Assembly: GCA_050302075.1 (NCBI GenBank)
Contig: JBNLAH010000002.1
Location: 218,427 to 282,426, forward strand
Source: Parachlamydiales bacterium
GTDB taxonomy: Bacteria > Chlamydiota > Chlamydiia > Chlamydiales > SM23-39
Length of the DNA: 64,000 bases
Direction of reading: 5' to 3'
The position numbers were made by a program, and so were the translations under genes. Numbering within the stretch: the stretch's first letter is position 1; each line of letters begins with the position of its first letter. This document shows, piece after piece, positions 11,006 through 62,121 of the stretch. A model generated the notes under the pieces. It was not told where the DNA came from. It did no database searches and saw only the letters and a program-made list of their open reading frames with translations.

Positions 11006-12697
11006 TCAATGGCTACAGGCTAAGACTAAAAGTCCTGCTAACACATAACGGTTTTTTGGGTTTCCTTTTTTCATAGCATCCAGTACTGAATAGATACTCA
11101 TTTCATCTTGTTTTGAAGCCAAAGACAGATAAACATCGATCAATAAACGAGAAGTCTCATCAGTGTCTAGATCATATTTAGTTTTCTCAGGTCGGATATT
11201 AAACGAAAGATAAGGTTGTAGTCGAATTAACTCGTTATGATTTTGCCTTAGCAGCCACCCTCTAATATACCCCTCATGTTCCTTTCCTTCGTTCATTCTA
11301 AACAAAGCTAAATGACAGTAATCACGTACAAAGGGAGCTCCAGCTTTCTTTGAGTATTTTTTTAAAAGTGAAATTGTGGCAGGACTTTGTTTGTTTTCTA
11401 ACAAAGATACAAGTTGTGGCACCAAGTCATTTTGGCTATTGTCAAAGATTACTTTGGCAATTTCTAATAGTGCTTCTTCTTCCAACTCGAGTACTTCTCT
11501 TAAATAAGCTTGTTTCAGATTAAGTGATAAAGATAAGTCTAGTGTTGGGTCTTTCAATCTTTGAGACGAAGAGGGTATTGGTTTTATTGCACTATGGGCA
11601 TAGCCCAAGGAATGAGATATTTGATAAGCAATATCTTTTGTGTCACTTACGAAAAACTCTTTTAAAAAACCCACACATCTAGAGTCTTTTCTTCTTAAAA
11701 GTGAAAGCATTGCATTTATACGAACTTGAAAATTAGGAGACTTACAGAGAATTAAAAGAGAGTTCTCACTATTTTCAATCTCAGCTAAAGCATTAATTGC
11801 AAAGACATTTGAATTTAGCGCCATTTTTTTTATATTTTCTCCGTAGCTAGTCTCTCCTAAACTATAAAGACTTTTGTATGCTGCAAGCCTAACGTTTTTA
11901 TCAGGTGATTTGCTAAGCTGTTTTAGCACTTTATAGCTTTTAGAGTCTTTTAGAATCCCTAAAGCAAGAGCGCTTATTTCTTGCTCAGCTATATTGGTGT
12001 GGGAAGCTGCTTTCCTAATTAAGTCGATCAAGTCATCTCTGTTGGTTGCAGCAGCGCTGATAATAGCCTGTACACGAGTAATTGGATAAGGGTCAGACAT
12101 TAGTTTTTTTAAACTTGCCGTAGCTTCCGCAGTTCCTGAAATGGCAAATAATTTAGGAAAGTATGGCCTAAAAAAAAATGGAAGTTTTTGCATTAGTGAT
12201 TCTATTTGTCCTACTGCAGATGGATGTTTTCTAGTAGCTAAAATATAAGCAGCTTCAACTCTAATTTGCAAATAATCAGACGACATAGCTTGAATAAGGA
12301 GACTGTCAACATAATCTTCAGGATATTGAGATAAAAAATGAAGGGCTACAAGCTGGACTTGAGCGTCATTTGACTGAAGCCCTCTTTCAATAATTTCTAG
12401 TGAACTTTTGCTTTGCGCTATTCCCGCCCCAAAAACAGATAATAAGTTTGTTTCAACATCATCAGTATCAATCCCTTTTTTCATTAGGATATAGCACATC
12501 TGCTGCAGAGTTTCTAAATCTGCTATTTTTTCCTTAGAGCAATAACTTATGAACTTGTCAATAGACCTTTCTACTTCACCAGCTTGCATTAAAAACAAAA
12601 CATGATTCTTACTATTTTCTGAGTCTCCAAATACATGAGTTGTTAGTGATAAGATAATTATTCCCAGCCCACCAATAAAAGATCTTAAATTTTTCAT
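11006..12697 (-). CDS. HEAT-repeat protein (CT350-like)
   Basis: Repeated L.S.D..VR..A...L motifs; signal peptide; chlamydial pairing with the LptD-like gene. Confidence 0.75.
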   Translation of the reverse strand: MKNLRSFIGGLGIIILSLTTHVFGDSENSKNHVLFLMQAGEVERSIDKFISYCSKEKIADLETLQQMCYILMKKGIDTDDVETNLLSVFGAGIAQSKSSLEIIERGLQSNDAQVQLVALHFLSQYPEDYVDSLLIQAMSSDYLQIRVEAAYILATRKHPSAVGQIESLMQKLPFFFRPYFPKLFAISGTAEATASLKKLMSDPYPITRVQAIISAAATNRDDLIDLIRKAASHTNIAEQEISALALGILKDSKSYKVLKQLSKSPDKNVRLAAYKSLYSLGETSYGENIKKMALNSNVFAINALAEIENSENSLLILCKSPNFQVRINAMLSLLRRKDSRCVGFLKEFFVSDTKDIAYQISHSLGYAHSAIKPIPSSSQRLKDPTLDLSLSLNLKQAYLREVLELEEEALLEIAKVIFDNSQNDLVPQLVSLLENKQSPATISLLKKYSKKAGAPFVRDYCHLALFRMNEGKEHEGYIRGWLLRQNHNELIRLQPYLSFNIRPEKTKYDLDTDETSRLLIDVYLSLASKQDEMSIYSVLDAMKKGNPKNRYVLAGLLVLACSH

Positions 12698-31309: not shown

Positions 31310-31978
31310 TTATGAAAGAGGAAATAAAGAACCATCTTTAAGTTCTAAAGACTTATCACATAATGATGCTAGGTTTAGATCATGAGTTGCGATAATCAAA
31401 CTTTTTTGTTCATTTTTTGTAATTGAAAGTAAAAGCTTATGAATTGTTTTAGAATTTTTATGGTCTAAGTTTCCGGACGGCTCATCAGCTAAAATAATGT
31501 CAGGGTCATTACAGAAAGCTCTAGCGATAGATACTCTTTGCTTTTCACCTCCAGATAAAAATTTTGTCTGAAAATTCTTTCTATGGCTTAACCCTACTAG
31601 TTCAATGTACTTTTCAGCTCTTTTAGAGGTTGTTTTAAGATTTTTTCTACCAATTCGTGCTGGGAAAGTGACATTATCTAAGACTGTAAAGTCATCTAAT
31701 AAATTATAATCTTGGAAAATAAATCCTATTTTTTCATTTCTTATCTTGGCAGCATTGTTAAAATTAATGTTAACAGAGGATAGCTTTATAAAGCCCTCGT
31801 CGGGTTTTTCCAAAAGCCCAAAAATATTCAGCAGAGTTGTTTTACCTTCACCTGATGAGCCCATAATAGCTATGGACTCAGAGGGTTTAATTGAAAATGA
31901 AATTTTTTTAAGCACATCTACTCTTTGAGGATGTAAATAGTGCTTTGAGATATTTTCAGCTTCTAAATTGAATGTCAC
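31310..31978 (-). CDS. lolD: Lipoprotein-releasing ABC transporter ATPase LolD
   Basis: GSSGEGKTT, IGFIFQDYNLL, LSGGEKQRVSIARA, LADEPSGNLD, ATHD. Confidence 0.88.
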   Translation of the reverse strand: MTFNLEAENISKHYLHPQRVDVLKKISFSIKPSESIAIMGSSGEGKTTLLNIFGLLEKPDEGFIKLSSVNINFNNAAKIRNEKIGFIFQDYNLLDDFTVLDNVTFPARIGRKNLKTTSKRAEKYIELVGLSHRKNFQTKFLSGGEKQRVSIARAFCNDPDIILADEPSGNLDHKNSKTIHKLLLSITKNEQKSLIIATHDLNLASLCDKSLELKDGSLFPLS

Positions 31979-32789
31979 GTTCTTTTAACCTTTTTTTGAT
32001 TACAGCTTCAAGCTCATTTTGTGAGTGGCAGTAGTAACAATTTATCCCATACATGCAGTTATTGTTGAGAAAATTAACGCATATTGCTGCTATTTTCTCT
32101 ACTCTTAACTCTCTTAATTCATGTTCTCCATGGGCAAAAGAACAATTTCTTGCTTTTCTACAAGTTTTTCCCCTAGCATGATATTTACAAAGCCTAGTTT
32201 TGTAATTATGACAAGTTGCAGCAGCTTCTAAGTCTTGATTTGGTTGCACTTCTGGTTTAATTAATCCTTTACAGACTGCAAATTGAAAAAGCTGCTGGTA
32301 TCTTCTAGTAAAGTAGCTGTATGAAGCAATAGCTTTGCTATACTTTTCATGATGAAATGAGAAGAGTACTAGATTGCGTTCTTTTTTCGCTTTTTTTATC
32401 TCTCTTAGATGATAATTTGACAACATATAGTTTTCATTAGACTTTATATATGCTGCGTGTATAGCTCTTAAATACGTTATTTGTAGATTGTTTAGGCTAA
32501 ATACTGGTGGCTGCCTGCGCTCTTGAGGTGAGTATCTAATAGGGCCTTGCGCCTCTAAAAATCTTCTTGTTGTAGGTGCTAGGAGATCTATCGCACGTTC
32601 AGCCGCTGTTTTTTTCTCACCTTCGCTATCAATTGTTTTTTCTCTTGGAGTACTGCTTTGAATAGCTTTTTCCATACTAGGCAATATATGACTGATTAAA
32701 TCAGCTGATCTGGGAGTTACACTAAGTGTGTCCTCTCTTGGATTACTGGGGGCTATTATTGGATTAGTAGCAATTGTTGGAAATGACAT
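31956..32789 (-). CDS. Tandem CCCH zinc-finger protein (TTP/ZFP36-like) with N-terminal extension
   Basis: NYKTRL-C-x8-C-x5-C-x3-H-GEHEL, then C-x7-C-x5-C-x3-H-SQNEL. Confidence 0.85.
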   Translation of the reverse strand: MSFPTIATNPIIAPSNPREDTLSVTPRSADLISHILPSMEKAIQSSTPREKTIDSEGEKKTAAERAIDLLAPTTRRFLEAQGPIRYSPQERRQPPVFSLNNLQITYLRAIHAAYIKSNENYMLSNYHLREIKKAKKERNLVLFSFHHEKYSKAIASYSYFTRRYQQLFQFAVCKGLIKPEVQPNQDLEAAATCHNYKTRLCKYHARGKTCRKARNCSFAHGEHELRELRVEKIAAICVNFLNNNCMYGINCYYCHSQNELEAVIKKRLKERDIQFRS

Positions 32790-33129: not shown

Positions 33130-34299
33130 TTAAGCTGATATACCATTTTTATCTAATAGGATTTTAAAGTAGCTAAGCTCATTTTTAGTATGAACAAAAG
33201 GGCAAAAGGTTAGACGAAGGCAACTTTTGCCAAATCTGCATCTCCTGTTAATTTTATTATCAAACTTTTTAATTTCTCTTTTACTATGAGCAAAATGACA
33301 ATTCCTTCTATTGCAGGCGCCGTATTTAATGAATGCTTTGCAAAATGCTGTGGCTAATTTTTTAGTTTTCTCTCTAGTTTTATTGCTAGCTAAGGAAGCA
33401 GCACCACAATCTCTTTTAGTATGCGTTGTTGGAGCTCTAAAAGAATGGCGGTAAGCTTTCGCTTTGGTAGTCTTATCTTTTGAAGCTTGAGAACTTGATT
33501 GACTTGCTTCAGCATGGGCTGCTCCTCCTGTATTTTTAGAAGTATTAGCTGGAGAAGCTGCGTGGACAATACTGCAGTTTCTTTTATTTCGCGGCCTCAT
33601 TATGAGGATACTTTCTGGGGCTGAGAACTCTGCTTGAGCTGCAGGACATGTTCCACTAGAATTACTGGTTGCTGCATATTGAGATGATAAGATAGTTAAA
33701 TCTTGTGAAATTTGCATAGTTTTCATACAAGCTTGCGAAGCAAATGAAAATTGAAAAGCTGCAAGTGCTACATTGTGGTATAAATATTTTGACCTAATCT
33801 CAAAAGAACGCAAGCTTTCTGATTCTGTAACTTCTTTGTGTGGATTAATTTTATCTAAAAGCTCTCTGAGGTGAGCTGAGTGATAGTTAATAAAACCTAG
33901 TAATTTTTCTTCATCCAAATTATCTGCTTGAAAAGGTTCCAATTCAACAGCTGTGTAATTTTCTGGCACTTCTTCAGCTCTATTATTTATATGTAATAAA
34001 AAGTTGTGTAATTGAATGTAAAAACTAGATCTAGCCCAAGCCTCTGTATATATTAATTGATTTAACCAATTATTATCTGTTTGTATTGCCTCAAAGTACC
34101 TAAATTGTTTTTTCTGAGATGTCTCAGCAAATTTGAGATATGAACTTAGAGCGTCGCTTATTACGTTTCTTAATTTGTTATCGATAGTTGACTGGGATTG
34201 AGCTGCCGGCGATTCCTCAGCTTCAGGATTAGTATATAGATTTAAAATACTACTATTTAAAGGTTGAAGATCTGTAAAGTTATCTGACTGAATACTCAT
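33130..34299 (-). CDS. Divergent tandem CCCH zinc-finger protein with long N-terminal domain and S/A/K-rich linker
   Basis: ATAF-C-x8-C-x4-C-x3-H-S..EI and C-x5-C-x5-C-x3-H-T.NEL near the C-terminus. Confidence 0.8.
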   Translation of the reverse strand: MSIQSDNFTDLQPLNSSILNLYTNPEAEESPAAQSQSTIDNKLRNVISDALSSYLKFAETSQKKQFRYFEAIQTDNNWLNQLIYTEAWARSSFYIQLHNFLLHINNRAEEVPENYTAVELEPFQADNLDEEKLLGFINYHSAHLRELLDKINPHKEVTESESLRSFEIRSKYLYHNVALAAFQFSFASQACMKTMQISQDLTILSSQYAATSNSSGTCPAAQAEFSAPESILIMRPRNKRNCSIVHAASPANTSKNTGGAAHAEASQSSSQASKDKTTKAKAYRHSFRAPTTHTKRDCGAASLASNKTREKTKKLATAFCKAFIKYGACNRRNCHFAHSKREIKKFDNKINRRCRFGKSCLRLTFCPFVHTKNELSYFKILLDKNGISA

Positions 34300-34422: not shown

Positions 34423-34872
34423 TTACTTGCTTGCATTAAATCTTCGATCATAAACTGTTTGAAAAATTTGAGTTTCTCGAGGGAGCTCTACTAGTTCTTC
34501 AGGCCCGTGAGCAAAATCACAGTCATCTCCAAACTGGCAAACACCCCCTTGTAAATAATTAACACAAAGTTGGGTTTTATAATTAGGACGTTGTCTTAGT
34601 TCTTCAGATCCATGAGCAAATTTACAACTTTCCCCACGGTAACATCTGCTTTTTATAAAATGACGGCACAACTGGGTTTTGTAATTATCTCGTTTCTTTT
34701 TTAAGCTAAGCTGTTCTTTTTTTGCGGGTTGTTTTAAAGCACTTTGGCAAACAGCCGTTGTCACAATCCTTTCCTGGAAAATCATCTCGACAGTTATATC
34801 TTTTTTAGTTGTACTTGGTTCTTGATATGAAAGACTTTCTTTTGATGTAGAAGAAGATACGCTTGAAGCCAT
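34423..34872 (-). CDS. Tandem CCCH zinc-finger protein, closely TTP/ZFP36/Cth-like
   Basis: NYKTQL-C-x7-C-x5-C-x3-H-GSEELR and NYKTQL-C-x8-C-x5-C-x3-H-GPEEL; S/T-rich N-terminus; AGAGG RBS. Confidence 0.92.
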   Translation of the reverse strand: MASSVSSSTSKESLSYQEPSTTKKDITVEMIFQERIVTTAVCQSALKQPAKKEQLSLKKKRDNYKTQLCRHFIKSRCYRGESCKFAHGSEELRQRPNYKTQLCVNYLQGGVCQFGDDCDFAHGPEELVELPRETQIFQTVYDRRFNASK

Positions 34873-34901
34873 CTTTTTACCTCTTTAAATAATGAGGGAT
34901 C

Positions 34902-34929
34902 ATCTTAAAGTTTTTAATAAAAAAATCAA
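34902..34929 (-). promoter_or_regulatory. Putative sigma66/70 promoter TTGATT-N16-TAAGAT
   Basis: Read on the minus strand upstream of ATG 34872. Confidence 0.4.
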
Positions 34930-34958
34930 CTACTAAAAATTTGAGTGGATTTTTTTAT

Positions 34959-36968
34959 TTACGATCTAAGTATTTTAGCTGGGTTAAGATTTGCGGCTTT
35001 TAGAGCTGGTATAATTCCAGCAAGCAAAGAGATTATTGGTGTTACAATTAAAATAAATAGAAGAGCTTCTGAGCTCAAGTTATTTGGAAGAGAACTACCA
35101 AAAAAGGCAGCATTAAAGGCCTGGTGACCTTGAAGCCTACTTAAGAATGCAGCAATTGAATCAATGTGTTTTAAAGTGACTACTGCAAGGAATGTTCCAA
35201 TGGCGCTGCTCAAAAAACCTGTGATAAAGCCACATGCGCCAAAAATAAAAGCTATGCTTTTTTTAGAAGCTCCAAGTGACATAAGTATAGCAATTTCTTT
35301 TTTCTTATCGTTTACTAACAATATTAGCATTGAAATAACATTTGAACATGCCACCATTAAAATTATAATAGCAACTAAAGAAAATAAGAGCTTATCACTT
35401 TGAAACTGTTGTAATAAATCTTTTGAAAAATCGAAATCTTCATATGTCTCAACTTTCCAATATTTATCTACTTTCTTATCAATAAAGCCTGTTTCAATTA
35501 AGGATTTTATTTTTTTAGCATCCTTCAATGGCGTATTCCAAATGAAAAGCCCATTGTTGGTTATTTCACTAGTTGAAACAAATGATGAAGAGTTAATAAT
35601 TCTTACTAATTCAATTGGAGCTATTAAAAACCTACTTCCTAACGGAAATACACCAGGATCATAAAAACCTGCTATATAAAAAGGAGTTCTCATTTCCTTA
35701 GATGATGTAGAACTTGCAGATGAAAATCCAAAGTAACCATTGTCTCCAATTAGCGCATGATTTTTTTTGAAAGATTTAGGGAGTAGAGTACCATAGCTAT
35801 TGTTTATCTTTGGTAAAATATAGCCCTTGTTTTTAACAAAATAAATCCAAGGGGGAGGAGTTTTGGGTTCGTTGTCAAAATTTATTTTTGCCTTAGCTTT
35901 GACTAATTTGCATGCTCTTAAAGAGATTTTTTCATTAATTGGGTTATTTTGAATTATTCCTTTAACAAAAAGATCTTCGTTTTCAATTGACTCAACATCA
36001 AAATAAAGTGGCTCTTTAGTGTATAAAATAGTTGATTGGACGTCGAAATTTTTTTCTAATCTGCCATTTACGATGTACAAAATTTTATCTTTCAGTCTGA
36101 TGATTTGAGTGTCAGATTGACCATTGTTTTTTAGCAGAATTTGCTTCTTACCTCGAATTTCAGATAATTTTTCCACATAAAAAAGAACTTTCTCAGGTAA
36201 TAGATAATAGGGGAGAGATGGATCTTTTAATTGAACTTTTTTAATTTGAATATTTTCTAATACCCTTTGATTAAATGAGGTATTATCAGGTGAAAAAGCT
36301 ATTCTATCTTTTAATGAAGCCTCATTTTTATTGATGAGAAGATTTTCAATATCTTCTATTGAAGGCTTTACTAAAAGGTTAGATAAATTTGGGTTTTTTT
36401 CAGAAAGTGACAATATATAAGTCATTTGTGATACAAAAGAAGTTTGTGGTAACAAGTTATCTGAACTTCTGTTTAATGAAAGCCGCATGAAAGCTCCACT
36501 TAATTCGTAATCTTGAAATTCAAGCGCGGGAAAGTCTTTTTTCAAGTTATTAAGATCGCTATAAGCAATTTTAACTAGATCTTTCACTTTCCCATTATCA
36601 TCTACGTCCGGTTTATTCCAATGGTAAGGAATTTCAATATCTGAATCTGATAAGTAGGGATTTGCTAGGTTGGAATTTTTTTTTTCTCCTATGGTTTTAG
36701 TCTCATAAAAAGACTCAGATGAAAGATTATCGATTAGATAATAATATGATTTGTAATATTCATCTGTTGGGGTAATCCTAATAGGAGCATTTAAAGAAGT
36801 AAGTTTATTAAGCCAATTTTGTTCTAAACCGGCTGTCACAGATAAGAATATTAAGACGAGCCAGACTACCAAAGAAATCACAACAAATGCAATTAGTGAT
36901 ATAACTGATGTAGAGATGGCTCTTTTTTTAGGAATTAAGTACTTGAGAGCGACAAAAAGCTCATACAT
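34959..36968 (-). CDS. Lipoprotein-releasing ABC transporter permease LolC/E (FtsX-like), with large periplasmic insertion
   Basis: ELFVALKYLIPKK, VVWLVLIFLSV..G, ACSNVISML...DKKKEIAIL.SLGA, PALKAA.LNP..ILR. Confidence 0.88.
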   Translation of the reverse strand: MYELFVALKYLIPKKRAISTSVISLIAFVVISLVVWLVLIFLSVTAGLEQNWLNKLTSLNAPIRITPTDEYYKSYYYLIDNLSSESFYETKTIGEKKNSNLANPYLSDSDIEIPYHWNKPDVDDNGKVKDLVKIAYSDLNNLKKDFPALEFQDYELSGAFMRLSLNRSSDNLLPQTSFVSQMTYILSLSEKNPNLSNLLVKPSIEDIENLLINKNEASLKDRIAFSPDNTSFNQRVLENIQIKKVQLKDPSLPYYLLPEKVLFYVEKLSEIRGKKQILLKNNGQSDTQIIRLKDKILYIVNGRLEKNFDVQSTILYTKEPLYFDVESIENEDLFVKGIIQNNPINEKISLRACKLVKAKAKINFDNEPKTPPPWIYFVKNKGYILPKINNSYGTLLPKSFKKNHALIGDNGYFGFSSASSTSSKEMRTPFYIAGFYDPGVFPLGSRFLIAPIELVRIINSSSFVSTSEITNNGLFIWNTPLKDAKKIKSLIETGFIDKKVDKYWKVETYEDFDFSKDLLQQFQSDKLLFSLVAIIILMVACSNVISMLILLVNDKKKEIAILMSLGASKKSIAFIFGACGFITGFLSSAIGTFLAVVTLKHIDSIAAFLSRLQGHQAFNAAFFGSSLPNNLSSEALLFILIVTPIISLLAGIIPALKAANLNPAKILRS

Positions 36969-48446: not shown

Positions 48447-49424
48447 ATGGAAATTAAACAACAAAAAGAGTATCAGAATTCGAAAGGCTTTTTCAACCCT
48501 TATCAAAAATCTACCAAAAGACACTTGTGGAATGTTGTTTTGTGGAAGTTGGGGTTTTACAATGAGCCCGAGACAAGAAATAAACCTCCTAGGGATTTCA
48601 AATACCCAGTAAACACAAAATTTAGTGGCGGAGAATACTTTTGTACTTGGATAAATCATTGCACGTTTTTAGTGGGATCGGAAGAAATAAATATTTTAAC
48701 GGATCCTATTTTTAGCAATTATTGTTCCCCACTTCCAGTTCCTTCTTTAAAAAGAAGGCATAAACTTGAATTTAGTTTGCAGGATCTTAAAAAAGTCGAT
48801 TATGTTTTGATTAGTCATAATCATTATGATCACTTAGATAGCTTTAGTGTGAATGAATTAAATAAAAAGTTTCCTGAAATCAAGTGGATTATCCCTTTAA
48901 ACTTGTCTTGGTGGTTTAAAAAACGCGGAATAAAAAATACTTTTGAGCTTCGCTGGTGGAAAGAGATTTTTTTTGGTAATGAGATTAAAATTACAGCGGT
49001 GCCTTCTCAGCATTTTTCTGGGAGGGGACTTTTTAGCATGAATAAAACTCTTTGGAATGGGTATGTCTTTGAGTTTTTAAAAAGCAAAAAGAAATGTTAC
49101 TTTACTGGTGATACCGGTTACAATAAATATGATTTTTCAAGGATAGGCAATGAATTTAAATCAATTGATCTCAGCTTAATACCAATAGGTACTTATTGTC
49201 CTAGGCCGTTCATGAAGACAGTGCATATTGATCCTAATGAAGCTGTGACGATTCATAGAGAAGTAAAATCTAAGTTCAGCATTGGGATGCACTGGAAAAC
49301 ATTTAAGTTGTCAGATGAACCTTTAGATTTACCTCCATATGATTTATACCTGGCAATGATAAAAGAAAAAATACCGATTGAGGAGTTTATAGTAGTGGAT
49401 CCAGGAGAATCTGTTAGTTGGTGA
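48447..49424 (+). CDS. Metallo-beta-lactamase-fold hydrolase (NAPE-PLD/RomA-like)
   Basis: LTDPIFS, ISHNHYDHLD, QHFSGR, TLW, FTGDTGY, PIGTY.PR, MHWKTF. Confidence 0.88.
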   Translation: MEIKQQKEYQNSKGFFNPYQKSTKRHLWNVVLWKLGFYNEPETRNKPPRDFKYPVNTKFSGGEYFCTWINHCTFLVGSEEINILTDPIFSNYCSPLPVPSLKRRHKLEFSLQDLKKVDYVLISHNHYDHLDSFSVNELNKKFPEIKWIIPLNLSWWFKKRGIKNTFELRWWKEIFFGNEIKITAVPSQHFSGRGLFSMNKTLWNGYVFEFLKSKKKCYFTGDTGYNKYDFSRIGNEFKSIDLSLIPIGTYCPRPFMKTVHIDPNEAVTIHREVKSKFSIGMHWKTFKLSDEPLDLPPYDLYLAMIKEKIPIEEFIVVDPGESVSW

Positions 49425-50068
49425 TGCTTTATTTTAAAGTTAAAAAATACCTGTTTGTTCAAGAGATTTTGACTCTTCGGTATTATAAAAATTTCAAATT
49501 TGCGGTTTTGGATATTTTTCAAAAGCTGATTTATGCTTTTATAAATCCCTATAGAGTATCTAAAAAATTTCTAATAAAAAAAGGCTTTCAAGATGTCCAC
49601 ATGTATGGCGAAACGCCAATTAAAGCCTTTAGTGAGCTTTTACAAGAATTCGGCTTAAATAAAAGAGATAATTTTTTTGAAATGGGATGTGGAAGAGGAA
49701 GACTTTGTTGCTTTGTTAGCTCGCTTTATAAATGCAGCGTGGTCGGAATAGAGCAGATTGCAACTTTTGTAAGAATTTTAAGATTTTTACAAAAAATCTT
49801 TAGGCTAAAAAACTTTGAAGTAGTTAATAAAGACATGTTTGATGTTGACTACAGTCGCGCGAGTTTTATTTATCTATATGGAACATGCTTGAAAGAAGAT
49901 GAAATTTATAGACTTGTTGAAAAATTTAAAAGTTTGAACAAAGGTACAAAGGTCCTCACAATAAGCATTTCACTAAAAAATTATGATAAGAGTTTTCACT
50001 TATCGAAAAAGCATCAGCTTAATCTACCGTGGGGAAAGGCGACTGCATATTTTCATGTTAAGCTTTAA
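49418..50068 (+). CDS. Class I SAM-dependent methyltransferase
   Basis: YGETP, EMGCGRG motif I, IYLYGTC. Confidence 0.8.
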   Translation: MVMLYFKVKKYLFVQEILTLRYYKNFKFAVLDIFQKLIYAFINPYRVSKKFLIKKGFQDVHMYGETPIKAFSELLQEFGLNKRDNFFEMGCGRGRLCCFVSSLYKCSVVGIEQIATFVRILRFLQKIFRLKNFEVVNKDMFDVDYSRASFIYLYGTCLKEDEIYRLVEKFKSLNKGTKVLTISISLKNYDKSFHLSKKHQLNLPWGKATAYFHVKL

Positions 50069-53726: not shown

Positions 53727-55259
53727 ATGCATTCTGTTTCATCGTTATCACATAAATTTTTTAATGCTGCAATAGTAGAGACATCTAATCAAAATTCAAA
53801 AATAGCTAAACCTGAAGTGTTAGATCGAGTACATCAAATGAGAATTCAAATTCCCACGGCTCGTCCAGTAGATGGTGAAGTTAGGTTTGCTCTAAGCGCA
53901 ACTGGTACTCCACTATCTATTAAAACATATAAGTTTTTAAAATTTTTTGAAGAAGAGTATAAGTTTTTGCAATTAGTTAAAGAAGTCCCTCATTGTGTAA
54001 ATATTCGAGCGGTAGGGGAGCTAGATGATAAACAAGTAGTTGTATTAGACAACGCTGGAGAGCAAGATTTACTAGATTTTATAACTAAAATTAGGAAACT
54101 TTCAGAAAGAGAAGCTTTACAACTAGCTATTCAAATATTGGAATGTATAGAAGTACTGCATGAGAAAAAAGAAGTTATTCATAGAGATATAAAGCCAGAT
54201 AATATAATCGTAAATTCTTCTGAAGAGGGCTTACAGTTTACGTTAGTAGATTTTGGAATAGCTACAGAAAATTGTAAAAATCCCAAACAATGTCAGGGGG
54301 GAACATCTAGATATGCCTCACCGGAATATGCTTTGTCAAACAAATCTAGTCCTTTTCAAGATATCTGGAGTCTAGGCTATGTAATATTTTCAGCTTTTTC
54401 AGGAGAGCCACTTATTTCAAGTTTTGAACATGAACATGATCTGCGTTTGGGTTTATTGCAAGAGATGCAAATGGTTTTTGGAAAATTTCCACAAAGTATG
54501 ATCAAAACTGCACCCGAACATATTAAAGAAAATTATTTCGAAAAGAAAGGGCTTATTAAGAAAAAATATGTTCTCAAAAAGGCAGGTTTTAAATGCAAAA
54601 GCTTAGAAGAGCGCATGAAAGAATTTCCTGATCCGATAAAAAAATTACTAAGAAGGATATTTTCTTATGAAAATAGACCAACAGCCAGCGAATTATTGGG
54701 ACTAGAAGAGATGAAAAAAGATGTTTGTTTCAAAGTCGAGATCCCACCCCAAGCAATAAAAATGTTAATAACATCATGTGTAGATGTTGATGGAGAATTA
54801 GAAATAGTAGAAAAAGAATTCAACTTATGGGAAAAAAGTTTTGGCAAGATACACCACCATGTCCCGAAATCTAAGGATAAAAAATATAAAGTAACATTAA
54901 TGGATTGTTCAGGAAATATTTTATGTAATTGCGAAACTGAGATTAAGAATCTTCAAGATTCAATAGTAAGTTTACTTTCTCAACTTCCAAGTAGTCCTGA
55001 AATTGGGTATACTAGTTTGACAATATCTTCAAAAAATTTTGTTAAAAGTTTTTCTGGGTTGGAATTAATAGTTGAGTCAGAAACTCAACAAGGAATAATA
55101 CAAAAGACCTTTAAAATAAAAAAAAATAATACCTTTCCAGTTCCTACATCTATAAATAATAAATATAAAATTTCTTTTAGAAGTAAGTTAGAGGAATATA
55201 TTGAATGGGGTGTGCTAGAGCTTTTACCAGGGGGAAGGTATCAGTTAGATATAGAATAG
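53727..55259 (+). CDS. Hanks-type Ser/Thr protein kinase with C-terminal extension
   Basis: LSIK, HRDIKPDN, DFG, GTSRYASPE, DIWSLG, RPTA.ELL. Confidence 0.9.
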   Translation: MHSVSSLSHKFFNAAIVETSNQNSKIAKPEVLDRVHQMRIQIPTARPVDGEVRFALSATGTPLSIKTYKFLKFFEEEYKFLQLVKEVPHCVNIRAVGELDDKQVVVLDNAGEQDLLDFITKIRKLSEREALQLAIQILECIEVLHEKKEVIHRDIKPDNIIVNSSEEGLQFTLVDFGIATENCKNPKQCQGGTSRYASPEYALSNKSSPFQDIWSLGYVIFSAFSGEPLISSFEHEHDLRLGLLQEMQMVFGKFPQSMIKTAPEHIKENYFEKKGLIKKKYVLKKAGFKCKSLEERMKEFPDPIKKLLRRIFSYENRPTASELLGLEEMKKDVCFKVEIPPQAIKMLITSCVDVDGELEIVEKEFNLWEKSFGKIHHHVPKSKDKKYKVTLMDCSGNILCNCETEIKNLQDSIVSLLSQLPSSPEIGYTSLTISSKNFVKSFSGLELIVESETQQGIIQKTFKIKKNNTFPVPTSINNKYKISFRSKLEEYIEWGVLELLPGGRYQLDIE

Positions 55260-60502: not shown

Positions 60503-60551
60503 AGTTGTTGAGCTAAAAAACACTTAGTGTTAGTATTTAACTTCAAATTAT

Positions 60552-60624
60552 CGCGGGGTGGAGCAGTGGTTAGCTCGTTGGGCTCATAACCCAAAGGCCG
60601 GAGGTTCGAATCCTTCCCCCGCTA
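60552..60624 (+). tRNA. tRNA-fMet (CAT), initiator
   Basis: CGCGGGG... with C1:T72 mismatch; anticodon stem TTGGG-CTCATAA-CCCAA with three G-C pairs; GGTTCGAATCC. Confidence 0.95.
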
Positions 60625-60631
60625 TTTTTTT

Positions 60632-60705
60632 GGCGGCATAGCTCAGTTGGTTAGAGCAGCGGAATCATAATCCGCGTGTCGGCGGTTCGAATCCGTCTGC
60701 CGCTA
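60632..60705 (+). tRNA. tRNA-Met (CAT), probably elongator
   Basis: GGCGGCATAGCTCAGTTGGTTAGAGCAGCGGAATCATAATCCGC...GGTTCGAATCC...TGCCGCTA cloverleaf. Confidence 0.93.
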
Positions 60706-61059
60706 GTTTCCGCATTTCTCTCTTAAATTTATTTAAAATTCAAGTAAGTAAATAACTTTCTAATTTGGTAGACTTGTAATTCTATTTCTTAGATTTCTTG
60801 CAGTATGTAACTTGTGGTAATTTGGATTCTTTGCAAGTTCTTTTATCAAATTAACAGTCTCGGAGCCAAACCATATTTCATTAGACACGTCTCGATAGAA
60901 TATTACCAAATTGTAGAATCAGTTAGCCCTATTGGGCTCATTACGAACGCTTTATGAGTTATTTATTTTTTGATCTTAAAATCAGTAATTAATTGACTTT
61001 AATATCATGCTCTTTCATCTTCTTTTTTCTGCAATTAAAAAAAAGGATATAAATCTAAA

Positions 61060-62121
61060 ATGAGCTCTAGTTTAACCTGTAAACAAATTTTGCTAGTAGG
61101 GGAGGGGTCTTTTCTTTATACAGACTCCTTAGTATTTAAATACAAAAACGATTTAGCTGAACTGCCAAAAGCACTTACTAGTACAGAATTAAATAATAAT
61201 CCTTCAAAGGAAACAATATCGAGAATTGATCAATTAAAAAAAATTGGAGTAAAAATTATATTGGGCGTTGATGCTACAGAGCTACACACGAATTCCGATC
61301 TTAAAAATAAAAGATTTAAGCGGATTATGTGGGTTTGCCCCCATGCTGGTGGCTCTTACGTAGGACCAAATAACACTGAAGGAAAAACGTCAAAGGCTTT
61401 AGCTCTGTTTTTCTTTTCAGCAAGTCATCTACAAAAATCAGGTGATCAAATTCGTGTGGTCTTAGCTCAAGGCGATCGGAAAGAGTGGAGACAGAGTAAA
61501 GCATATGGAATTGTTAAAGCATCTCAGTCAGCTGGGTATGCGCTAGTACAAAAGAGAGATTTTGGCCCTAAGCGTTATCCAGGTTATGAGCATAGACAAA
61601 ATGGAAAAAGCATTGCAGCTAAAGCAGCTGTGAATAGATCTGTAGAATATATTTTTCAAAAAAGAATAAATATTGAAACAGTAAATAAAGCCATGAGTCT
61701 TTTTGGTTCTATTCCATTTGGAAATGAAGTTACAGAGGTTAGAATTATAAATATAATCCTATCATTATTAGAGTTGGACTTTTCAGATGCACCTTTATCT
61801 GATGGATCGATAGATTCCTTGTCGTTAGTCGAAAGTAACCTAGATAAATTAGCTGAAGAATCTCAAGTTTTGCTCGATGATCCAAACTCAGTAAAAAATG
61901 CTAATGCTATTAAAAAAGTTGCGGGTAAAGTTAAAAAGATGTTTAAAGTTCCTTCTGAAATCAGCCCCAAAAAGTTAAGGGGACTAGAATTTTTTCCAAG
62001 CCCCCAAAAAAATTACAGGAAACTTGATGAAATTTCTGGATCTCTAGAAGAATATCTTGATTCTGATTCTGAAATAGAACCCGATTCAGATACAGAAATG
62101 ACTAATGTCGAAAACTCATAG
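61060..62121 (+). CDS. Bmt5/DUF2431-like (25S rRNA m3U methyltransferase family) domain protein with acidic tail
   Basis: ILLVGEGSF..SL, LKKIGVKIILGVDAT.LH, RFKRIMWVCPHAG, YPGY. Confidence 0.75.
   Translation: MSSSLTCKQILLVGEGSFLYTDSLVFKYKNDLAELPKALTSTELNNNPSKETISRIDQLKKIGVKIILGVDATELHTNSDLKNKRFKRIMWVCPHAGGSYVGPNNTEGKTSKALALFFFSASHLQKSGDQIRVVLAQGDRKEWRQSKAYGIVKASQSAGYALVQKRDFGPKRYPGYEHRQNGKSIAAKAAVNRSVEYIFQKRINIETVNKAMSLFGSIPFGNEVTEVRIINIILSLLELDFSDAPLSDGSIDSLSLVESNLDKLAEESQVLLDDPNSVKNANAIKKVAGKVKKMFKVPSEISPKKLRGLEFFPSPQKNYRKLDEISGSLEEYLDSDSEIEPDSDTEMTNVENS

Follow-up and report, generated by a model that had tools for sequence, protein, structure and literature searches.

A TTP/TIS11-like tandem CCCH zinc-finger protein encoded by an environmental chlamydia: a candidate host-directed RNA-binding protein

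What is a zinc-finger domain of the class that reads mRNA sequence in mRNA decay doing in the chromosome of a bacterium? The question is raised by a small open reading frame (ORF) in a stretch of 64,000 nucleotides (nt) from a Parachlamydiales bacterium (contig JBNLAH010000002.1, positions 218,427 to 282,426 of the forward strand), referred to as the window, whose coordinates are used throughout. The ORF, here named z149, lies on the minus strand at 34423..34872, encodes 149 amino acids and was identified as a tandem CCCH zinc-finger ORF from the ORF list, Pfam (zf-CCCH) and sequence matches in the PDB. An earlier note, made from the sequence alone, had called it a minimal mimic of TTP. We find that z149 is a genuine TTP/TIS11-like tandem zinc finger, the match being far beyond chance, and that its finger module is apparently eukaryote-derived and horizontally acquired. 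As to its function, the balance tilts slightly towards z149 being a eukaryote-derived, host-directed RNA-binding effector, whose secretion and RNA specificity we infer from the features described below.

The assignment to the TTP type, which the earlier note had also made, is based on concordant matches in Pfam, among PDB sequences and in Foldseek. Both fingers are matched by the Pfam family PF00642 (zf-CCCH; 55 bits against a gathering cut-off of 20.5, E 6.7e-15), with the best stretch covering residues 98-124, and of 24 matches obtained by phmmer in the PDB the top two are TTP (1m9o, E 9.1e-14) and TIS11d (1rgo, E 4.6e-13). A pattern scan of the translation locates finger 1 at residues 69-87 (CRHFIKSRCYRGESCKFAH, CX7CX5CX3H) and finger 2 at residues 103-122 (CVNYLQGGVCQFGDDCDFAH, CX8CX5CX3H). 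NYKTQLC leads in to both fingers (residues 63-69 and 97-103); together with these lead-ins, the fingers occupy residues 63-87 (34612..34686, minus strand; aligned to finger 1 of TIS11d) and 97-122 (34507..34584, minus strand). All eight zinc ligands are present (C69, C77, C83 and H87; C103, C112, C118 and H122), at positions that are invariant across the chlamydial alignment, and the spacer from His87 to Cys103 consists of 15 residues (GSEELRQRPNYKTQL). Just ahead of finger 1 the sequence contains a basic patch, KKKR (residues 58-61; 34690..34701, minus strand), which may contact RNA or resemble a nuclear-localisation signal. A scan for the string RLP(I/V)F in z149 was negative, only the degenerate ELPRETQIFQTV being found there. 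The earlier note had described the length, the finger patterns, the spacer, the basic patch and the missing RLP(I/V)F correctly; the strand, the bacterial setting, the two adjacent CCCH genes and the insertion between lolE and lolD are additions made here.

The predicted structure agrees with this assignment. In an AlphaFold2 model computed from a 30-row alignment, the block-mean predicted local distance difference test score (pLDDT) is 80-96 for residues 61-130 and 50-64 for residues 1-60. The best Foldseek match of the model is 1rgo (E 2e-5, 46% identity over 68 columns, root-mean-square deviation (rmsd) 7.2 Å). VIA-align gave a Z of 4.6 for TIS11d with an rmsd of 6.9 Å over 65 residues, a match that is weak on its own, as expected for two small fingers joined by a flexible linker; it is the sequence evidence that carries the domain claim. 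The folded core of 65 residues is the finger domain only. It is preceded by a Ser/Thr-rich N-terminus of 57 residues (residues 1-57; 34702..34872, minus strand) that is predicted to be disordered, judged by pLDDT, and that is a candidate secretion-signal region by its composition, and followed by a C-terminal tail of 27 residues (residues 123-149, GPEELVELPRETQIFQTVYDRRFNASK; 34426..34506, minus strand), which includes ELPRETQIFQTVY and a weakly predicted helix (residues 132-145, block-mean pLDDT only 50-60). The view that z149 is nearly nothing but a finger domain is thus right in that little else folds, but it passes over the N-terminus and the tail.

TTP and TIS11d (1M9O, 1RGO) have the two CCCH fingers and the YKT-LC lead-in before each of them in common with z149, but there are several differences. 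Members of the ZFP36/TTP family are defined by two fingers of the CX8CX5CX3H type, whereas finger 1 of z149 is CX7. The spacer comprises 15 instead of 18 residues, the HMMER alignment showing three extra residues in TTP/TIS11d, and the lead-in is NYKTQLC instead of (R/K)YKTELC, i.e. the basic residue is exchanged for Asn and Glu for Gln while YKT-LC is kept. The aromatic positions of TIS11d, two per finger, are what we take to be the RNA base-stacking residues in the published TIS11d-RNA structure. In the HMMER alignment both of them are aromatic in finger 2 of z149 (F114 and F120), as the earlier note had recognised, whereas in finger 1 only F85 is aromatic and R79 takes the other position, with Tyr78 one residue before it. 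Moreover, z149 is devoid of the long N- and C-terminal decay-activating domains of TTP and of its canonical RLPIF motif and, unlike TTP and TIS11d, it is encoded by a bacterium. The PDB matches further include CCCH proteins that bind different targets, namely CPSF30, MBNL, Unkempt and Roquin.

Where does this variant of the tandem finger come from? The earlier note had supposed that the shorter spacer may alter the spacing of sites. We counted the layouts of 410 adjacent finger pairs in 149 representative proteins that had been selected for likeness to z149; these counts show that a layout exists in z149-like proteins and do not give its overall frequency. CX7CX5CX3H-16-CX8CX5CX3H is the layout seen most often (34 of the 410 pairs); in 68 pairs the spacer has 16 residues and in 17 it has 15. 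Among the finger types, CX7 carrying a basic residue at the second place past the second Cys leads with 281 fingers, and CYRG of z149 is of this type. CX7 fingers and short spacers are common in these protist proteins and are thus no peculiar departure from TTP, and we rejected a bacterial adaptation as the explanation of the short spacer. The highest single-domain scores, 59-65 bits, belong to protist (alveolate-type) CCCH proteins, e.g. P0083 (in a cluster with Durusdinium trenchii), P0081 (Polarella glacialis) and P0100 (Pseudomicrothorax dubius). Short-spacer proteins of this group are up to 55% identical to z149 and have the same CX7-short spacer-CX8 layout, C-x-(R/K)-G in finger 1 and FAHG-x-E-L after each finger. 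They differ in being eukaryotic and mostly longer, many with several finger pairs, and they share nothing with the N-terminus or the tail of z149. Accordingly, z149 probably inherited its architecture from a protist-type tandem zinc finger.

In a full HMMER pass over 1.84 billion representative proteins 12125 matches were obtained at E <= 1e-3. The best 150 of these 12125 contain no full-length relative of z149; besides z149 itself all of them match the finger region only, and many are long multi-finger proteins. We looked up the ten best single-domain matches and found that seven have eukaryotic names or sources, i.e. four dinoflagellates (Yihiella, Durusdinium by cluster member, Polarella and Biecheleria), one ciliate (Pseudomicrothorax) and two proteins of eukaryote transcriptome collections for which no species is given, and that three are unnamed. 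The leaning towards alveolates may stem from the sheer size of the CCCH families in dinoflagellate transcriptomes and say little about the donor. On rescoring of the domains, 23 representatives came out nearer to the z149 domain than did any other chlamydial protein, the best of which is a homologue in genome G007 (56.6 bits, rank 25). A word-index homologue search found z149 itself alone among 19 candidates, and a search of a language-model atlas returned small CCCH clusters only, of which those with recorded taxa are 94-100% Eukaryota (scores 0.85-0.89, to be taken as leads only). None of the NCBIfam bacterial families matches z149, and viral contigs yielded six pattern matches, no relative and no sign of a giant-virus route. 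With its nearest relatives eukaryotic and its gene in a chlamydial chromosome, the term mimic used in the earlier note is apt. Thus, we propose a eukaryotic origin of z149 because its nearest relatives are eukaryotic, because the finger is patchily distributed in the phylum and because its gene lies in an insertion.

The patchy distribution is evident from a sample of 400 genomes of the phylum, all but one of which were scored with a finger profile: matches were found in 15 of the 400 genomes, in 14 of 212 genera and, within the family to which the z149 genome belongs, in 7 of the 68 others. The matching chlamydial ORFs (in G007, G259, G004, G015, G249, G005 and others) mostly comprise 120-310 residues and resemble z149 in their small size, their disordered N-termini rich in Ser, Thr and Pro and their C-terminal tandem fingers. 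They differ in that their fingers are at most 46% identical to those of z149 (G007) and that they occupy different genomic loci, and none of them has the N-terminus of z149. Some are clustered, with three adjacent CCCH genes in G249 and two in G005. The closest chlamydial homologue, from G007 (L005:1399-1974, minus strand, contig C226), has 191 residues, contains NYKTELC and has its two CX8CX5CX3H fingers 18 residues apart, and its gene adjoins two SET-domain genes (PF00856; L005:181-708 and L005:629-1372, both plus strand, E 8e-16 and 1e-19). G249 (L028 and L038, C1, around 1883300-1884400; L041 and L042) has four finger-profile matches, three of them in the adjacent genes, and all four proteins carry a distinct conserved C-terminal extension after finger 2, which is aromatic and beta-like ('...TP.P...Y.I'). 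Finally, open frames of more than 1000 residues with a single NYKTELC- or NYKTQLC-type finger were seen in G339 (L026) and G176 (L029 and L039); these are a different, large architecture with the same finger.

A maximum-likelihood tree was built from 59 domain rows and 73 columns, in which the label 'eukaryote' of the representative rows is an assumption beyond the ten proteins looked up. Only one of its 56 inner branches is starred. Seven other chlamydial rows, including G249, G015 and G005, form a group of their own (Shimodaira-Hasegawa-like approximate likelihood ratio test (SH-aLRT) 90), and the two paralogues of z149 described below pair with each other on long branches (SH-aLRT 87). A single chlamydial origin of the finger genes is compatible with this tree.

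The third element of the argument is the genomic position. Three consecutive genes on the minus strand, each ending in tandem CCCH fingers, make up an island: z149, z389 (33130..34299, 389 residues) and z277 (31956..32789, 277 residues). z277, found by Pfam and by the tandem-finger profile (E 4.9e-29), contains NYKTRLC and a CX8CX5CX3H finger followed by a CX7CX5CX3H finger at its C-terminus. In z389 the two C-terminal fingers are degenerate (residues 320-338, CX8CX4CX3H; residues 354-370, CX5CX5CX3H; tandem-finger profile E 1.5e-8). Genome-wide, Pfam CCCH matches occur in three places only, the two z149 fingers and z277; z389 was found by the profile, which was built from chlamydial finger domains. 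Against the z149 domain z277 scores 40 bits (rank 80) and z389 11 bits (rank 168), and z389 and z277 resemble each other in the finger region only (BLASTP E 5e-6). No homologue of z389 was found in 70 other genomes of the family, and an atlas search with its residues 1-300 gave no usable match, leaving its N-terminal region without known relatives. At the DNA level the two z149 fingers are 83% identical over 30 nt (34492-34521 against 34597-34626, the C-x-F-A-H-G-x-E-E-L region) and weaker copies are present in z277 (32115) and z389 (33271), a similarity that reads as a trace of the repeat and of the paralogue relationship.

The island is flanked upstream by a gene for a LolC/E-type permease (34959..36968, minus strand; TIGR02212, E 9.8e-46), here lolE, and downstream by lolD, coding for the ATPase (31310..31978, minus strand; TIGR02211, E 1.5e-66), both assignments being backed by synteny. 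We searched 12 relatives for this locus, of which ten were informative; in one the locus ended inside lolE, and one gave no locus. In all ten informative relatives lolD starts within about 50 nt of the end of lolE, and the order tsaD-lolE-lolD-ugd is conserved, whereas the genome of z149 (G000) alone has an insert of about 3 kb between lolE and lolD. The three-gene island is thus a lineage-specific insertion into conserved synteny. A repeat scan of its borders revealed no flanking direct repeats, insertion-sequence ends, tRNA or other mobile-element signature. The 3' end of z277 overlaps the start of lolD by 23 nt and no terminator-like sites were found in the spacers between the island genes, and therefore the island is probably transcribed together with the operon, as far as the sequence allows this to be judged. 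A general promoter and terminator scan was uninformative, with 19 promoter-like and 6 terminator-like sites where 23.7 and 3.7, respectively, were to be expected. Between the stop of lolE and the start of z149 lies an AT-rich inverted repeat (34916-34959; 16-nt arms, 94% complementary, 12-nt loop) that could serve as a weak terminator or as a hairpin with a regulatory role. The permease itself has 669 residues against about 411 positions of the model, matching mainly C-terminally and with a large inserted middle region; the permeases of the relatives are similarly long, with open frames of up to 703 residues.

That the window is part of the chromosome of an environmental chlamydia follows from its gene content and from the nearest named relative of its LolE, a locus of a Chlamydiae bacterium metagenome-assembled genome (L043, 49% identity). 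The ORFs around z149 are dense and of the housekeeping type (kdsB-pyrG, zwf-opcA-pgl, PPi-phosphofructokinase, tsaD, lolC/E, lolD, galE and ugd). The assembly comprises 1.84 Mb in 89 contigs at 96% completeness, the genome has a GC content of 33%, and the closest sampled relatives belong to other genera, with LolE identities of at most 52%. z149 starts with an ATG, and the upstream 30 nt contain a Shine-Dalgarno-like AAGAGG 7 nt 5' of it (34880..34885, minus strand); such sites precede all three island genes. Its GC content of 0.367 and its GC content at third codon positions (GC3) of 0.227 compare with 0.340 +/- 0.023 and 0.260 +/- 0.032 for 33 reference genes of the window. A 117-kb contig of sequencing run X1, which may be the source of the assembly, spans the whole island without a difference. 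Eukaryotic contamination or misassembly was considered and is ruled out by the flanking bacterial genes, the Shine-Dalgarno-like sites, the genome-typical GC and GC3 and the single contig. Two 151-nt contigs of run X3, which is labelled as a sediment metagenome and comes from a study other than that of X1, are identical to parts of z277 (32398-32548 and 32613-32763), and the same organism may thus occur elsewhere at low abundance; other run matches (four pieces of X2 and four of six pieces of X3) are short and less than 90% alike.

How could such a protein act? In the mechanism that we propose z149 would be made in the bacterium from its own Shine-Dalgarno sequence and be exported into the host cell by a type III secretion system via its disordered Ser/Thr-rich N-terminus. 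There, the two fingers would clamp single-stranded U- or AU-rich elements of host mRNAs, similar to TTP and TIS11d (UUAUUUAUU-type elements), and z149 would occupy these AU-rich elements (AREs) in competition with host zinc-finger decay factors, altering the stability or translation of the targets. Occupancy is the simplest mode of action because z149 has neither the long activation domains of TTP nor its canonical CNOT1-interacting motif, and isolated TTP finger domains can act as dominant negatives. This mode corresponds to the inference of the earlier note that the protein could shield ARE mRNAs from decay. The genome encodes the type III secretion export gate SctV/HrcV (TIGR01399, 905 bits against a cut-off of 692); the best match to the secretin family TIGR02516 reaches 92 bits and stays below the cut-off of 238, i.e. 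the type III call rests on SctV. Ser, Thr, Pro, Asn and Gln account for 56% of residues 2-26 in z149, z389 and z277 alike, a share that ranks at the 98.7th percentile among 1537 crude ORFs with 100 residues or more. The full chain, in which a secreted z149 binds host mRNA and acts by occupancy, is a tentative proposal that we regard as possible rather than probable; in it the export of z149, its preference for certain RNAs and the sense of its effect on them are postulated.

There are precedents for parts of this scheme. SET-domain proteins, which are presumably secreted by chlamydiae and used against host chromatin, are eukaryote-type domains in Chlamydiae that, like z149, are thought to act on host macromolecules, but they are chromatin-acting enzymes and not RNA binders. 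The two SET-domain genes beside the finger gene of G007 may, like the composition and the predicted disorder of the z149 N-terminus, be taken as an indirect hint of export. The translocated effector PieF (Lpg1972) of Legionella pneumophila perturbs host mRNA decay via CCR4-NOT according to passages of two reports (PMC11774319, PMC12255788) and, by these passages, sets a precedent for host mRNA decay as a target of bacterial effectors. As described there PieF differs from z149 in that it binds the CNOT7/8 nuclease module rather than RNA and is secreted by Dot/Icm, and the parallel is drawn from its description only.

Several observations weigh against a host-directed effector that acts by occupancy, or against parts of it. 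In the tree z149 and the G007 homologue fall into an unresolved polytomy with representative rows, and the tree tells neither the donor nor the direction nor the number of acquisitions; likewise, the genome-like composition of z149 leaves the transfer undated, as a gene from an AT-rich donor would look alike. The N-terminus is a candidate secretion signal by virtue of its composition, and any disordered region would fit. Finger 1 departs from the TTP type in its CX7 pattern and in having Arg where the aligned residue is aromatic, so that a specificity for AREs cannot be taken for granted. The location of z149 within a housekeeping operon, where no terminator-like site separates the genes of the island, also suits a bacterial role. 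Finally, a tail motif common to z149 and three relatives hints at a partner-binding function instead of pure occupancy.

This motif, I/Y-F-x-x-hydrophobic, is located near the C-terminus, 8-20 residues past finger 2, and reads IFQTV in z149, YFKIL in z389 (ELSYFKILL), LPIFKEL in the G007 homologue (PLPIFKELI, eight residues past finger 2) and IFFSL in G259 (SIFFSLL). Given that the CNOT1-interacting peptide of mouse TTP is stated to be PRRLPIFNRISVSE, with the core LPIF, in the pertinent part of a published report (PMC9476947), the G007 homologue carries the exact core, and the motif of z149 seems to resemble it faintly. The claim of the earlier note that z149 has no obvious effector tail therefore holds for the canonical RLPIF, but is too strong in view of this hydrophobic motif. 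One may thus imagine z149 as a minimal adaptor: exported, it would bind host mRNA while its tail docks a host decay or repression factor, as the CNOT1 motif of TTP does, and the mRNAs would be destabilised or silenced. This would account for the recurrence of the motif, for the MAFFT alignment in which LP...IF of z149 is paired with LPIF of G007 and for the helix predicted at residues 132-145. However, the regular expression, which matched 3 of 24 chlamydial frames and none of 149 representative proteins (G259 was added by eye), was written after the sequences had been seen, so that the enrichment count is circular and amounts to a hypothesis, not a test. Furthermore, four extra residues separate LP and IF in z149, the tail helix is modelled at low confidence, and the motif of TTP sits at its extreme C-terminus, far from the fingers and not directly after them. 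On this evidence we consider the adaptor distinctly unlikely, and still less likely is a miniature TTP, i.e. a tandem finger with a short CNOT1-type docking motif that environmental chlamydiae would inject and by which AU-rich host mRNAs would be handed to the deadenylase or withheld from it.

A different explanation dispenses with the host altogether and sees in z149 a domesticated bacterial RNA-binding protein that stays in the cytoplasm and binds AU-rich bacterial transcripts, e.g. for regulation of the lol operon or of developmental genes. Several points would suit such a role: z149 lies between lolE and lolD and shares their strand, the start of lolD is overlapped by z277, the codon composition is genome-like, and the secretion of z149 is itself an inference. 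However, a gene of this kind is present in a mere 15 of the 400 genomes and at different loci, it is missing from the lolE-lolD junction of all ten informative relatives, and no bacterial family matches. The disordered, Ser/Thr-rich N-terminus, found likewise in both paralogues, speaks against it as well, and a UAUU-type binder would presumably meet so many sites in a genome of 33% GC that specific regulation would be hard to achieve; we regard a purely bacterial role as rather unlikely, if worth keeping in mind. Little speaks for z149 being a neutral or decaying remnant of horizontal transfer without a present function, and we give this view scant credence: the fingers of z389 are degenerate and there is no orthologue of z149 among our matches with which to measure selection, but the ORF of z149 is intact, with its eight zinc ligands, both lead-ins and the Shine-Dalgarno-like site, in a compact chlamydial genome of 1.8 Mb with dense ORFs. 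Moreover, identities of up to 55% to eukaryotic domains, while the paralogues drifted, suggest constraint. Equally doubtful in our eyes is that the fingers recognise something else, be it another class of RNA, poly(ADP-ribose), DNA or a partner protein; in view of KKKR, this may take place in the nucleus of the host. Finger 1 with its basic residue at the aligned aromatic position belongs to the type that is commonest among the best matches, we know of no determined specificity for this CX7 type, and the PDB matches to CPSF30, MBNL, Unkempt and Roquin point to the breadth of CCCH targets. Nevertheless, the best matches in both sequence and structure are the ARE-binding domains of TTP and TIS11d, both fingers are still preceded by most of the YKT-LC lead-in, and finger 2 keeps both aligned aromatics. 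A host-directed RNA binder is thus the reading that we prefer.

Other genes of the window also have a eukaryotic flavour. In an ORF of 216 residues (49418-50068, plus strand) we found a further eukaryote-type domain, that of the DOT1 histone methyltransferase (PF08123, 35.6 bits with a cut-off of 23, E 9e-9), and the encoded protein is possibly directed at chromatin. A Ser/Thr protein kinase domain (PF00069, E 3.5e-31) is found in the ORF at 53727-55259 (plus strand), a HEAT-repeat protein (PF13646, E 2e-19) is encoded at 11006-12697 (minus strand), and a BMT5-like rRNA methyltransferase domain (PF10354, E 1.4e-26) at 61060-62121 (plus strand). In addition, a tandem pair of tRNA-Met (CAT) genes, with 5 nt between them, is located at 60551-60706 (plus strand).

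In our search of the literature no paper came up that deals with CCCH proteins or tandem zinc fingers in Chlamydiae, Legionella or other bacteria, although supplementary tables of pan-genome studies might list the domain. The part of the text of a 2017 survey of the RNA-binding potential of effectors that bears on this question describes effectors that bind host RNA as unknown and holds no CCCH entry (PMC5570926). z149 is thus a eukaryote-like protein of an intracellular bacterium with a sequence-reading mRNA-decay finger class that is undescribed for bacteria in the literature searched.

Bacterial effectors attack host proteins, membranes, chromatin and, as recently seen with PieF, the mRNA decay machinery. 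z149 and its relatives may extend this range; about 4% of the genomes sampled from the phylum contain the finger domain. z149 is also a natural experiment on the minimal functional unit of a TTP-like protein, and it makes the protist finger type with CX7 and a short spacer worth characterising. Should the improbable case of a miniature TTP prove true, z149 would represent the first class of bacterial effectors for which direct reading of the sequence of host mRNA is known, and the three-gene cluster together with the 15 of 400 genomes would constitute a diversifying family of mRNA readers. More generally, a TTP-type domain in chlamydial chromosomes would open a testable route to sequence-specific bacterial control of host mRNA fate.

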